11,050 nt of DNA from Coriobacteriia bacterium (GTDB lineage Bacteria > Actinomycetota > Coriobacteriia > Coriobacteriales > UBA8131): NCBI GenBank assembly GCA_009784425.1, contig WRBR01000061.1:1-11050 (forward strand), read 5' to 3'. A program made the translations under genes and the position numbers. Positions 2,337 through 6,394 of this stretch are shown here, in pieces. How positions within the stretch are numbered: the stretch's first letter is position 1; the number at the start of each line of letters is the position of its first letter. The notes below the pieces were generated by a model. The model made no database searches, was not told where the DNA came from, and was given only the letters and a program-made list of their open reading frames with translations.

Positions 2337-2647
2337 AACGCGCACTCCTGTTGTCCTTATGAGAGCGTCTCTGCTCTTCTGGTTCATCACCAAGCCAACT
2401 TATCTACCTTCACAACGGGCGTTTCTCTGAGAACAAAACGTACCGCTCTCTATCAGCTTACGGTTGCGGCCAGGCAGAATCGAGCTACTCTGGTTGGAGT
2501 TTGAAGAAACTTTTGGTTGCGGAAGGAGTTTTACCAGACGTACCAGTATGTTATGAGCAAATAATCTATAAATCCTTTCGCTATTCACACTCGAACCATG
2601 CTTTCACTTTCGCTATTAAATGATGGGCACAAAGATTTCAAGGGGGA

Positions 2648-2757
2648 GACAGGGGGACGGTTCTTCTGTCTCAGAGACAGAAGAACCGTCCCCCTGTCTC
2701 AGAGACAGAAGAACCGTCCCCCTGTCTCAGAGACAGAAGAACCGTCCCCCTGTCAGG
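2648..2757. repeat. Tandem palindromic repeat array. One left arm, GACAGGGGGACGGTTCTTCTGTCTC, is followed by three head-to-tail copies of the 28-nt unit AGAGACAGAAGAACCGTCCCCCTGTCTC. Every copy can pair with the left arm.
   Basis: Read directly from the sequence. The unit is the perfect reverse complement of the left arm around an A centre. The copies are contiguous with no spacers. Confidence 0.9.
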
Positions 2758-2817
2758 TTCTGTAGAGACCCTTTTCCTGAGCCTCAAGCCTCACTTACCC
2801 AGTTGCCGCCATGCTCT

Positions 2818-2955
2818 GACACAAATCCGAGAGTTCCTGCCGCGTTTGCACGCAAAAGTACGATTTTCAGCCTATTATTAGTGGAAAATGGGTGTTCAAA
2901 GGTCAAAAATCGTACTTTTGCGTGCAAACGCGGCAGGAACTCTCGGATTTGTGTC
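2818..2955. repeat. A 138-bp perfect hairpin. The 50-bp inverted repeats (GACACAAATCCGAGAGTTCCTGCCGCGTTTGCACGCAAAAGTACGATTTT and its exact reverse complement) are separated by a loop of about 38 bp. It looks like a MITE or a recombination site.
   Basis: Left arm 2818-2867 and right arm 2906-2955 are exact reverse complements (50/50) on direct reading. The loop 2868-2905 is AT-rich. Confidence 0.9.
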
Positions 2956-2966
2956 ACTGAGCGCTG

Positions 2967-2997
2967 CCACCACCTAATCGCCGGAAGCTTCTTGTGC
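2967..2997. terminator. GC-rich stem-loop (12-bp stem ATCGCCGGAAGC / GCTTCCGGCGAT, loop TTCTTGT) immediately 3' of the SPFH gene. It is a possible transcript-end structure with no clear U-tract.
   Basis: A perfect 12-bp inverted repeat lies about 15 bp beyond the stop codon of the minus-strand gene that ends at 3012. There is no T-run on either side, so intrinsic-terminator status is uncertain. Confidence 0.35.
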
Positions 2998-3011
2998 TTC
3001 CGGCGATGCGT

Positions 3012-4106
3012 CTACTTTGAGCTCATGATTTCTCTGAGCTCTCCCAGGAGGTTTCCGCCACTTACTGAGATGGTTCCCACCTTGTCGCAGATCCTTTCCA
3101 GGTATTCAAGTTCCTTGAGCTTGTACAGCGTGGTGTTCTCCTCCATGAGTCGTGCCGTGTTGAGCAGACTTCTGGTTGAGGCAACCTCTTCACGACGGGA
3201 GATGACATTGGCCTGAGCGTTCTTCTCGGCCACCAAAACGGTGTTCATGATGTCACGGATTTCTCCGGGCAAGATGATGTCCTTGAGGCCTGCGTCGGAA
3301 AACTCAACGAACAGGGCGTTTTGCTTTGCCTGGAGCTGCTTCAAGACAAAGGCCGCAATGGAATCCTTTTGCTCAAGCAACTCGTCAAAACGAAAGCGGC
3401 CGATATACTCGCGCAGCGCGAGCTGGGTTGTTGCGTAGACCTGGCTCTTGTAGTCATTGATCTCGCTGATGACCTTGAGTGCGTCAACCACCCGATAGGT
3501 GCAGACAAAGTTAATACGGAGAGAAACCTTGTCGGCAGTGAGAATCTCCTGCCCCGCGATGTCCAGTTGCTGAGCACGCAGGTCAACCCTGAGAACAGAG
3601 ATCTTCTGCAGGTTGAGCCAGAAGTTATAGACACCGCTCTTGAGCATGCGCACAAACTGTCCATCCACGTACAGCAAGCCTGCTTCGCCTTCTGCCACCT
3701 CGTAGCTGCGATACAGGTGGCGGGGTACTGCCATCAGCTGCTCGGCAGTTAGTCCGCCAAGCTCCGCTTCCGTGGTGTTGATGAGCTTGAAGCTCTGCTC
3801 ACGAAAGCAGTTCCAGTAGCAGTAGGTGCCAGGGTACAAGTCGTCGACGATACGACCGTCCTCAGTACGCAGGGCGATGTGGCCGTCAGGCACGTCAATG
3901 CGGGTGACGCTCCGCGCAAACGCCTCGTCTCGCAAAAGAACGGCGATGTCTACGTTGGGGAGCGCAACAGGATGTGCAACATTTACCTTTACGCAGCTCT
4001 CGCCAAACCTCGTTGCCACTCTGTGCTTGCCGGGCAAGAGCAGCTTACGATACGTTCCGTTCTTGAAGAGAAATCCTCTCTCGTTTTCATTGATTACTGT
4101 TTTCAT
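3012..4106 (-). CDS. SPFH/band-7 (stomatin/prohibitin/flotillin/HflKC) domain protein. It is atypical: there is no N-terminal membrane helix, and the N-terminal beta-segment of the SPFH fold appears duplicated.
   Basis: The C-terminal 200 aa (KVSLRINFVCTYRVVDALKVISEI ... VLVAEKNAQANVISRREEVASTRSLLNTARL ... coiled-coil) match the SPFH core. The N-terminus, MKTVINENERGFLFKNGTYRKLLLPGKHRV, resembles the usual SPFH start, and a second copy of the same motif, GLLYVDGQFVRMLKSGVYNFW...VDLRAQQLDIAGQEILTADKV, follows about 150 aa later. The start was chosen at ATG 4106 (rc) because AGAGG sits 5 nt upstream. The track ORF extends to 4322 with no RBS, and its extra 72 aa have no SPFH counterpart. Confidence 0.75.
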   Translation of the reverse strand: MKTVINENERGFLFKNGTYRKLLLPGKHRVATRFGESCVKVNVAHPVALPNVDIAVLLRDEAFARSVTRIDVPDGHIALRTEDGRIVDDLYPGTYCYWNCFREQSFKLINTTEAELGGLTAEQLMAVPRHLYRSYEVAEGEAGLLYVDGQFVRMLKSGVYNFWLNLQKISVLRVDLRAQQLDIAGQEILTADKVSLRINFVCTYRVVDALKVISEINDYKSQVYATTQLALREYIGRFRFDELLEQKDSIAAFVLKQLQAKQNALFVEFSDAGLKDIILPGEIRDIMNTVLVAEKNAQANVISRREEVASTRSLLNTARLMEENTTLYKLKELEYLERICDKVGTISVSGGNLLGELREIMSSK

Positions 4107-4483
4107 TTTTACCTCTATTCTCTCGTTTTTGCCCCTGAACTCCCTGTAAGAGAGAGGGGCAGGTGTTTGATATTGCTTGTTGGTTTCCACCAAAAATGTC
4201 CACGTCTGTTTTGCGGGACCAAGGTTGAGCTCAACAAAAACTCCTCGGTGTGTGTTTCCCAAGTTGTGCAGAAACACTGTGGAAGAGGTCTGGTTAAGCG
4301 GTATCCCCTTTGTCGCAGGCAAACCATACGCTGCAAAGCGTTGCTTATTGGTTGGGCGTGTGCCTAAGCCTCAAAGCAACAGCTGTGCGGGACATTTTCA
4401 GTTTCGACCGTGTGGTGATAAGGCTTTGCTGGCCTTTTCAGGAGGGATACCGCAACAGTTATGTACTGCTGGCATCACGACAT

Positions 4484-4530
4484 ACTCTACCATTGAGCTA
4501 ACCCATGACGGGTGAAGGATTCGAACCTTC
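4484..4530 (-). other. tRNA-like fragments. A perfect T-arm (GAAGG-TTCGAAT-CCTTC) plus a 7-nt acceptor-like strand is followed immediately by a D-arm-like motif, TAGCTCAATGGTAGAG. This order cannot make a tRNA, so it is either a fossil att site or part of an ncRNA.
   Basis: The plus strand reads ...CTCTACCATTGAGCTAACCCATGACGGGTGAAGGATTCGAACCTTC... The reverse complement gives GGTTCGAATCC, the canonical T-loop, and GCTCAATGGTAGAG, the canonical D-arm. No complementary 5' acceptor strand (GACGGGT) exists nearby. No tmRNA tag reading frame was found either. Confidence 0.35.
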
Positions 4531-5158
4531 AACTGTGTCGAAAGGTCTGTTTTTCAGACAGAGTGACGGGCAGACATCCCGGCATACCGCAGGATAGAAT
4601 CCTCGGCACCGCAAGGGCCTCCTAACCCTTTGCATAGGGAAGTAAACCTAAAGTGAAGGGTACTACTCATAAGTTGTTTACCGGATTTGTGGTTGGTGCC
4701 GGCGAGCTGAGCAGTTTGAGCTGCTCTGCCGGTTGTCCAAACAGGTTTTGCGAAGCGTCGATACCAGTGTATCGGCACGCTTTAAAAAGGAACGACTCGT
4801 CATATGCTTATGACCGCCGTGTGAAGATGCTGTTGTCAAGGTTCAGTGGTTCTCGTTCGTTTCTACCAACAGGGGCTTTGGCCGTATATGCTCCAAACAC
4901 CAACCGGAGCCTTGTTGCCTAGAGCCGCTGCTGTTGTCTTCAGTACTTTGAAAACAATTCATGCTCTCACCTTTCTTTTTACTGATGCTCGTACTTGAGC
5001 CTGACCAAGATTAACCGGTCTTGAAACAATAATCATTTAAAAAAGTTTGCGAAGTCATATCTTGTGCGTTTTATCCAAGTCTTGGAAAATGGTTTTAGTT
5101 TCACTCCTTACCGGAGGCACGCGGCGGGCACAGTTGTTTGGAGGGCAGCAACAACGGC

Positions 5159-6394
5159 ATGGCGGATTTCTCAGAGCTGGTAAAAAGGTTTGATAAGATT
5201 AGAGACTATATGCATGACTTTTATGTGTATGGTTTTAAGTCACGCTTGGACTTTACCAAGAAGTCGCCGCGCACTTATGACAACGAGCGCCGCCGCATAG
5301 AGAGCTATCTGAGCGGTCACATGCAGTGGGATTACAGAAATGGCGCCAAGATATCCTTTGTTTCTCTAGACTGCGCTCAGGTTTTGAACAATCCCCTCTA
5401 TGCTGCGTGGAAGTCAAAAAGCTTTACTGCAAACGACATAATGCTGCACTTTTTCCTTTTGGATTCACTTTGCGAGAGCCCCTTGACCATAGAGGAGCTC
5501 ACGCAAGAAGTCTGCACAAGGTGCGAGCTTGTTCTCGACTCCCAAACCATCAGAAATAAATGTGATGAGTATGTGAGGCTGGGCATGCTGGAAAAGAAAA
5601 AGCAGGGCAGGGCCTACGTGTACCGTATCTCTACTGAGCCGGCCTTGTTGCCGCAAGAGCTTATAAACGCGGTGAGTTTTTTCCAGGGCGCAGCTCCTTT
5701 TGGTGAGATTGGCAGTTTTATCCTCGATAACGAAAAAGCAGCCAATACTGTTTTCTCCTTTAAGCACTACTACCTGGCGCACACGCTTGAAGACGGCATC
5801 TTGCTGGAGCTCCTCACGGCCATACGGCAGAGTCGATCGGTGACCTTCAAAAACCAGAGCAGCAAGTCGGAGCAGATATTTGCCTTTGAGGCAATTCCCT
5901 TGAAGATATTCGTCAGCGCTACCACCGGAAGGCGCTATGCCTGTATGTACTCGCCAACGAGCAGGCGTTTTTTCAACTATCGCCTCGATGCCATCAAGGC
6001 GGTAACCCTGGGCGAGGCTGCAGACTGCGCACCTCAACTGAGAGAGCAGCTGGATAAGAACCTCGATATGGTGTGGGGCGTGAGCTTTGGCGGCAAGGCG
6101 CGCTCTGACATCATTCGCATGACGCTGTATATCAATGAGAAGAGCGAGCACTATATCATCGACCGCATAGCGCGTGAAGGGCAGGGGGGCAGTCTTACTC
6201 GCCTGAAGAAAAACACCTTTCTCTTTACCAAGGAGGTCTTTGACAGCAACGACATGTCTCCCTGGATTAAGACGTTCACCGGCCGCATCATCGCACTTGA
6301 GGGGTCCAACCAGGCAGTAGTCAACCGCTTCTATCGTGACATCTCGGCTCTGGCACAGCTCTATGGCATTCAAGCCGGGGAGGCTGATTCTTAA
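5159..6394 (+). CDS. WYL-domain transcriptional regulator with wHTH-WYL-WCX architecture (PafB/BrxR/CapW-like), carrying an extra N-terminal domain of about 110 aa
   Basis: The wHTH is about TIEELTQEVCTRCELVLDSQTIRNKCDEYVRLGMLEKK. The WYL motif is RYACMYSPTSRRFFNYRLDAIKAVTL. The C-terminal WCX-like segment is YIIDRIAREGQGGSL. The start is ambiguous: ATG 5159 has GGAGGG 14 nt upstream, while the track start TTG 5138 has no RBS. The stop TAA overlaps the next ATG (TAATG). Confidence 0.75.
   Translation: MADFSELVKRFDKIRDYMHDFYVYGFKSRLDFTKKSPRTYDNERRRIESYLSGHMQWDYRNGAKISFVSLDCAQVLNNPLYAAWKSKSFTANDIMLHFFLLDSLCESPLTIEELTQEVCTRCELVLDSQTIRNKCDEYVRLGMLEKKKQGRAYVYRISTEPALLPQELINAVSFFQGAAPFGEIGSFILDNEKAANTVFSFKHYYLAHTLEDGILLELLTAIRQSRSVTFKNQSSKSEQIFAFEAIPLKIFVSATTGRRYACMYSPTSRRFFNYRLDAIKAVTLGEAADCAPQLREQLDKNLDMVWGVSFGGKARSDIIRMTLYINEKSEHYIIDRIAREGQGGSLTRLKKNTFLFTKEVFDSNDMSPWIKTFTGRIIALEGSNQAVVNRFYRDISALAQLYGIQAGEADS

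Follow-up and report, generated by a model that had tools for sequence, protein, structure and literature searches.

The window analysed here, an 11,050-nt stretch of contig WRBR01000061.1 from a Coriobacteriia bacterium (assembly GCA_009784425.1), comes from a 22.5-kb metagenomic contig on which a relaxase gene is also found, and it has a 99.4% identical copy in another sample. Its minus strand carries a gene for an SPFH/Band-7 protein of the slipin type (3012..4106; 364 amino acids; Pfam Band_7, E = 1.6e-33), and its plus strand, divergently, two paralogous genes for WYL-domain regulators (5159-6394 and 6394-7452), recognised as WYL by both Pfam and PADLOC. The kilobase between them (4107-5158), which an original prediction made from the letters of the window took for non-coding DNA containing scrambled tRNA parts, is indeed intergenic: it is bounded by the start codons of SPFH (ATG at 4106, with M1 invariant in 33 homologues) and of the first WYL gene (ATG at 5159), and the two open reading frame (ORF) calls that reach into the gap (3012-4322 and 5138-6394) are over-extensions. 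Our subject is the tRNA-like RNA encoded in this gap, on the strand that continues into the SPFH gene directly downstream.

The tRNA-like module occupies 4540-4478 of the minus strand and lies 372 nt upstream of the SPFH start. An outer helix resembling an anticodon stem encloses the whole module (CGACA, 4540-4536, paired with UGUCG, 4482-4478). Inside it follow, in order, a variable loop (CAGUU), a T arm (GAAGG-UUCGAAU-CCUUC, 4530-4514) with a canonical T loop, a closed acceptor hairpin (4513-4501) in which ACCC (4513-4510) pairs with GGGU (4504-4501) across a short loop of 3-5 nt (GUCAU), a UA dinucleotide in the manner of U8-A9, and a D arm (GCUC-AAUGGUA-GAGU, 4498-4484) whose loop is also canonical and which is followed by an A26-like base. 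The T arm, acceptor strand and D arm had been placed correctly on this strand, with ACCCGUCA directly 3' of the T arm and then (U)GGGU-UA-GCUC-AAUGGUA-GAGU. The accompanying statement that no complementary acceptor strand exists does not hold, as the pairing of ACCC with GGGU shows. Because of this pairing and that of CGACA with UGUCG, the parts are not scrambled: judged by its sequence, the element is a circularly permuted tRNA, opened at the anticodon loop, and not debris. It had also been argued that the order of the parts cannot make a tRNA, which is true of a linear cloverleaf but not of the permuted, closed-acceptor form, in which a closed acceptor loop and an opened anticodon stem can give the same L-shaped fold. 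Compared with a canonical tRNA, the acceptor is not built from the 5' and 3' ends and no anticodon arm lies between the D and T arms.

Standard tools see little of this structure. ARAGORN calls neither a tRNA nor a transfer-messenger RNA (tmRNA) at the module, and the Rfam tRNA model is likewise silent. The Rfam search that had been suggested gave the following result: no family of release 15 reaches its gathering score in the window and no tmRNA family appears in the region at E = 10, but a permissive scan of 1.5 kb places YrlA as the top match at the module (30.6 bits, E = 3e-4), over model positions 23-85 of 114, which is exactly the tRNA-like half of that RNA. We also used covariance models of our own. 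Model R1 scores the window module at 65.4 bits, and the leave-one-out model R2, built from nine modules of other loci with the window left out, scores it at 55.2 bits (E = 6.5e-18); the next match of R2 in the window, at 11 bits, is the T arm of a tRNA-fMet half (~8350-8397). Among 27 strong homologues, 98% of cells are paired (shuffled controls, 68%; slid controls, 34-52%), changes on both sides are seen in 12 of the 15 pairs, and every helix shows compensatory changes. An alignment of 4584-4506 to tRNA-Sec in the normal order (19 bits, E = 1.1) was treated as chance.

We then compared 80 genomes with an orthologous SPFH gene. In 71 of them an R1 module lies upstream of that gene on its coding strand, at a distance of 205-940 nt (median 322); the genomes lacking a match are mostly truncated contigs. 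The carriers belong to several Bacillota families, with one from the Synergistota. WYL genes accompany SPFH in 53 of the 80 loci and the RNA ligase gene rtcB in 46, the other 34 having no rtcB within the available sequence. Three arrangements recur: type A, with WYL2 and WYL1 divergent, then rtcB, a gap of ~450-550 nt and SPFH; type B, with WYL1, WYL2, the gap, SPFH and rtcB; and type C, which is type A without rtcB. The window itself holds neither rtcB nor a remnant of it, either in the 1-kb gap or elsewhere (tblastn with three RtcB proteins). In ten loci lacking rtcB, the genes downstream of SPFH are mutually unrelated; since such loci are not rare and their downstream genes unrelated, the RNA and SPFH form the constant pair.

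These data bear directly on the origin first favoured for the element, a fossil attachment (att) junction, or the decayed remains of tRNA genes, produced by serial tRNA-targeted integrations. The tRNA-fMet junction on which that idea leaned does exist, ~3.9 kb away: the 3' half of a tRNA-fMet lies at 8397-8350 (minus strand). It extends from its anticodon loop (CUCAUAA) as far as ...CCCCGCGACCA, has an intrinsic terminator (8318-8345) after it and adjoins a tyrosine integrase gene (8589-9860, plus strand). Neither ARAGORN nor Rfam calls this half; it is the att junction of an integrative mobilisable element to its right, and the SPFH cassette is outside that element. While 8397-8350 thus fits the definition of an att remnant, the module does not: it is kept in many unrelated contexts with no integrase nearby, its acceptor strand is paired in a hairpin, and the same arrangement recurs upstream of SPFH in 71 of 80 genomes with all helices maintained by compensatory substitutions. 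Nor does an intact tRNA occupy the equivalent site in related genomes, as had been envisaged: an ARAGORN scan of 60 related loci found no standard tRNA in the gap, only tRNA-like calls on the element itself (L014 and L045). We consider an att fossil refuted by the comparative data and very improbable here. The other options originally offered, a permuted tRNA-like non-coding RNA or a tRNA-mimic cis element, are the ones that layout, covariation and position support.

Other tRNA mimics share features with the module. Two-piece (permuted) tmRNA, the tRNA-like structure of turnip yellow mosaic virus (TYMV TLS) and mascRNA all mimic the elbow formed by the T and D arms, and permuted tmRNA genes also put the T arm and 3' acceptor strand before the 5' part, which would suit an interpretation of the element as one piece of such a tmRNA. 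The window, however, shows no free CCA end, aminoacylatable acceptor, tag ORF or pseudoknot; the acceptor is closed by a 3-5-nt loop, and both ARAGORN and the Rfam tmRNA families are silent. A tmRNA piece is already unsupported and, in our estimate, the least credible of the explanations considered.

Several relatives carry tandem arrays of two to four modules upstream of SPFH (L010, 4331-4515; L015, 4591-4740; also L011, L012, L085 and L002), and the final module of an array often ends with a full anticodon arm. In L010, L011 and L015 the junctions between modules exceed the gathering threshold of the Rfam tRNA model, so that, together with the ARAGORN calls in L014 and L045, some relatives are called tRNA-like, and automatic annotation could label the arrays of these three loci pseudo-tRNAs. 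A normal-order tRNA spanning adjacent modules was rejected as the overall architecture, given that every acceptor hairpin is complementary within itself and unlike those next to it in sequence. The elements of type B gaps are a hairpin like an anticodon arm, a T arm, an acceptor hairpin that is long and closed, and a D-like arm; ARAGORN sometimes calls them tRNA-Asp or tRNA-His.

The module does not stand alone. Positions 4637-4182 of the window align with the rtcB-SPFH gap of relatives, and from the conserved pairing we conclude that the module is embedded in a larger structured RNA of ~450 nt (about 4637-4186, minus strand). At its start, RNAalifold on type A and type B loci predicts a conserved 5' domain (4581..4633) consisting of hairpin P1 (GCAAAGGG...CCCUUGC, 4633-4611) and GGUGCCG-hairpin-CGGUAUGCC (4610-4581). 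Across types this reads as P1 followed by GGUGCNN-hairpin-NNGUAUGCC, and the pairs beside GGUGC covary between types A and B (CCG/CGG, CAC/GUG, CGC/GCG). Between the 5' domain and the module stands the upstream hairpin already noticed in the original prediction, UCUGU-CUGAAAA-ACAGA (4562-4546), here extended to CUCUGU-CUGAAAA-ACAGA(G) (4546..4563); it resembles an anticodon arm, with a 7-nt loop and U33-like and R37-like positions, and in the closest relative, L089, the stem is retained while the loop is changed to CUCAAGA. In an exploratory count, anticodon-like hairpins with 7-nt loops were ~3.4-fold enriched upstream of SPFH genes relative to shuffles, and a count of the same exploratory kind found GUN triplets over-represented at their anticodon position.

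Downstream of the module, alignment with relatives reveals a hairpin CAGCAGU-ACAUA-ACUGUUG (4453..4471). In its L089 counterpart, CGGCGG/CUGCCG, two A-U pairs have become G-C without loss of pairing, and relatives L002 and L004 have a hairpin and a second T arm at this place. Next comes a second hairpin with a 7-nt loop, AAGGC-CAGCAAA-GCCUU (4420..4436), whose counterpart in L002 and L004 is, by alignment, the anticodon-loop-like hairpin GACC-UUUCAAG-GUC(U). The RNA ends in a conserved 3' domain (4186..4401, RNAalifold) closed by a predicted long-range helix between CUGAAAAUGUCC (4401-4390) and GGACAUUUUUGG (4201-4190); the homologous helix is found in most type A and C loci with entirely different sequences and its complementarity kept. 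Within this domain the motif GGAUACCG (4306-4299) is invariant, in type B as well. Within type A, CGGUAUGCC seemed a good long-range partner for GGAUACCG; we rejected this pairing because the 5' block of type B is GUG/GCG while GGAUACCG is fixed; the type B block covaries locally with GGUGCNN instead.

What kind of RNA is this? The closest described structure is YrlA, a Y RNA with an effector domain in the form of a circularly permuted, closed-acceptor tRNA; YrlA is modified by TruB and DusA and adjoins rsr, often in rtcBA operons (Chen et al. 2014; Wang et al. 2018; Rfam RF02553, crystal structure PDB 6cu1 from Wang et al. 2018). The layout is the same in both, namely an anticodon-like stem, variable loop, T arm, closed acceptor stem-loop and D arm; the window and the YrlA consensus have an identical D arm, UAGCUCA..GGUAGAG, T-loop nucleotides are shared, and YrlA and the SPFH-linked class are both tied to RtcB operons. 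Furthermore, the positive control for R1 was successful in that the model, made from SPFH-linked modules, retrieved modules in phage contigs directly beside TROVE/Ro60-vWA genes. One module type therefore serves two partner proteins. These Rsr-adjacent phage modules (L171, L127, L097 and L165) have GGUUACUUC just 5' of the tRNA-like part, and the window has GGUUUACUUCC at 4640-4650 (minus strand), ~100 nt upstream of its module, a likeness that may be due to chance. Plasmid and phage collections yielded no RNA similar to the window's and no orthologous SPFH gene.

From the top Rfam match, the identical D arm and the retrieval of phage RNAs, one might take the element for a genuine YrlA that binds a Ro60/Rsr protein encoded elsewhere, its position beside SPFH being incidental. 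The differences speak against this. The window scores 30.6 bits against a gathering score of 69 bits over the full YrlA model, a threshold also missed by all 13 related loci scored; no match covers the Ro-binding stem (model positions 1-22 and 86-114); and the Rsr-binding motif GNCGAAN0-1G (Chen et al. 2014) is absent from the minus strand of 4107-5158. YrlA is an RNA of 80-130 nt encoded within ~4 kb of rsr, a TROVE-domain gene, whereas the SPFH-linked modules occur in tandem and inside an RNA of ~450 nt, and the window's partner gene is SPFH. TROVE domains were absent from the ten window ORFs tested, from the genes called on the fetched stretch of the 22.5-kb source contig, and from the loci of five relatives (within L002-L008). 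Since the link to SPFH recurs in 71 of 80 genomes, it is not incidental, and we regard a genuine YrlA as improbable.

A second precedent concerns the partner gene. Wang et al. 2018 (bioRxiv 10.1101/312249), summarising Burroughs and Aravind (NAR 2016), mention that in some bacteria RtcB is encoded beside a Band-7 protein and what is predicted to be a 'band 7-associated tRNA', or b7a-tRNA for short, and that YrlA is occasionally adjacent to a Band-7 protein; in that summary the tRNA-like RNA is a prediction, not experimentally validated. Our literature search found no later paper on a Band-7-associated RNA, although an rtc locus of Pseudomonas aeruginosa with an embedded SPFH gene has been noted independently. 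Going by the summary, the element is a new member of this predicted class: a tRNA-like RNA lies directly beside a Band-7/SPFH gene, in cassettes that usually include RtcB, and the reported case of YrlA beside Band-7 is the situation seen in the window. There are also differences from the class as summarised. The b7a-tRNA cassettes usually contain RtcB, which the window lacks; b7a-tRNA 'strongly resembles an authentic tRNA', and while the window RNA is permuted and goes uncalled by ARAGORN and the Rfam tRNA model, some relatives (L010, L011, L014, L015 and L045) do receive tRNA-like calls; and the tRNA-like part of the window RNA is one portion of a larger conserved RNA that also has 5' and 3' domains. 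The 450-nt architecture, the tandem arrays, the invariant operator described below and the core lacking RtcB may go beyond the published description.

Control of this unit may be exerted at a 22-nt motif, TTCGCAAACTTTTTTAAATGAT (5032..5053, minus strand), between the WYL genes and the rtcB/RNA unit. It is matched at the equivalent position in 19 related loci with 91-100% identity over 21-24 nt, and longer alignments of 25-41 nt around it have ~81-88% identity; the motif is thus almost invariant while the proteins of the same 19 loci are only 45-62% identical. With a -10-like box ~20 nt downstream (about 5013-5008, minus strand), TTCGCAAACTTTTTTAAATGAT is a probable candidate, on sequence evidence, for the WYL-controlled promoter/operator of the (rtcB)-RNA-SPFH transcript. 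Between this site and the RNA lies a spacer of ~360 nt specific to the window (4638..5004, minus strand), where type A relatives carry rtcB. It includes a 37-codon ORF with a ribosome-binding site (MNCFQSTEDNSSGSRQQGSGWCLEHIRPKPLLVETNENH; 4962-4843, minus strand), and blastn and tblastx found no similarity to the spacer in ~170 fetched loci except in near-identical contigs.

Altogether, we propose, with a probability of roughly 70%, that the locus encodes a structured RNA of ~450 nt with a tRNA-mimic core, placed under WYL control and acting as the partner of a soluble SPFH oligomer. The SPFH protein has no predicted transmembrane segment (maximum hydropathy 1.15), and its homologues number thousands, the nearest of them in Clostridia. 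The RNA would be transcribed from the WYL-controlled promoter at about 5050-5005, in the same transcript as SPFH, and its core would fold into an L shape having neither free 5'/3' acceptor ends nor an anticodon loop. By analogy with YrlA and Y RNAs, which play this part for Ro/Rsr, it could associate with the SPFH oligomer and present a tRNA-shaped handle or decoy to enzymes that recognise tRNA, such as the RtcB ligase or tRNA-cleaving toxins, possibly in the setting of an inducible RNA-damage response. As rtcB is missing at the window, the RNA-SPFH pair here would use a ligase encoded elsewhere or involve no ligation.

Several observations weigh against this proposal. R1 also scores the junctions of tandem tRNA genes in phage contigs, so that model matches alone are not specific; for the same reason we set aside match counts in the viral collection as evidence. 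The gene rtcB is missing within 5 kb in the window and in ~20 other full-length loci, which weakens the link to ligation, and the second T arm of L002 and L004 is degenerate in the window lineage. The RNA and its ends are predicted from DNA sequence, and its expression, processing and binding to SPFH are predictions too. Finally, no terminator-like site was found on the minus strand between the RNA and the SPFH gene, and the RNA could therefore simply be a 5' leader.

Such a cis-acting leader, in which the tRNA shape and 3' domain control read-through, processing or translation of SPFH instead of building a stable ribonucleoprotein, is the main rival; it is less probable, and it is compatible with the proposal above. 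Control might involve processing of the RNase P/Z type or binding by a tRNA-recognising protein. The element always precedes SPFH directly, on the same strand and by 205-940 nt, and we detected no independent promoter or terminator for it on the minus strand. Moreover, the long-range helix has a 3' strand that terminates in a U run and that in several loci overlaps a local CCCGCA...UGCGGG hairpin, as in an expression platform. The Lachnospiraceae locus L088 (2063-5001) argues instead for an independent role: there the RNA and SPFH are ~2.8 kb apart, with two extra ORFs in between, and the RNA stays beside rtcB. In addition, the same module acts in trans in Y RNAs, and arrays of one to four modules are hard to square with a simple switch.

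The remaining features of the window frame this unit. To the right of the WYL genes lie a gene for a HigB/Gp49-type toxin, the tRNA-fMet 3' half with its terminator, the tyrosine integrase gene and an HTH_17 gene; run on the window, PADLOC recognised the WYL domains only and no known defence system. A 23-nt unit, GACAGAAGAACCGTCCCCCTGTC, is present six times in all, four times at 2648-2754 (with a period of 28 nt and one copy inverted) and twice, as an inverted pair, at 8233-8283. The copies form long hairpins that bracket the SPFH-RNA-WYL-WYL-toxin/antitoxin block and give spurious matches to miRNA families in Rfam. There is also a separate perfect 51-nt inverted repeat (2817-2867 / 2906-2956). 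Both sets of repeats could be cassette boundaries or resemble repetitive extragenic palindromes (REP) or miniature inverted-repeat transposable elements (MITE). An ORF of 198 amino acids at 2620-3216 (plus strand) overlaps the palindromic repeats and the 3' end of SPFH, lacks a match in Pfam and is unlikely to be a gene. Likewise, the 97-nt 'tRNA-Pro (cgg)' that ARAGORN calls at 7008-7104 (plus strand), inside the second WYL frame and with no Rfam tRNA match, is probably a false positive.

Particles made of a large oligomeric scaffold protein and a small structured RNA offer a model for the proposed pair. The major protein of the vault has an SPFH-like shoulder domain, and the vault particle carries vault RNAs. 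The SPFH-RNA pair may, by analogy, be likened to both vaults and Ro-Y RNA particles. A more speculative and rather unlikely possibility is that the whole ~450-nt unit (the 5' domain, one to four modules with anticodon-arm-like hairpins, and the 3' domain with GGAUACCG) would be an RNA outside Rfam release 15 that forms a vault- or Ro-like particle with an SPFH cage, offers tRNA-shaped decoys or sentinels to tRNA-cleaving toxins, is switched on by WYL regulators and can work without a ligase of its own.

The locus touches on an open problem, the link between tRNA mimicry and RNA repair. Together with ~80 relatives it gives a testable definition of the element, comprising a permuted module, flanking domains and an invariant operator, and this guards against annotating it as tRNA debris, an att scar or a pseudo-tRNA. 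For the family as a whole, the RNA and SPFH emerge as the invariant core while RtcB is dispensable in many loci, and the same tRNA-shaped module serves both Ro and SPFH, scaffold proteins that are unrelated to each other.

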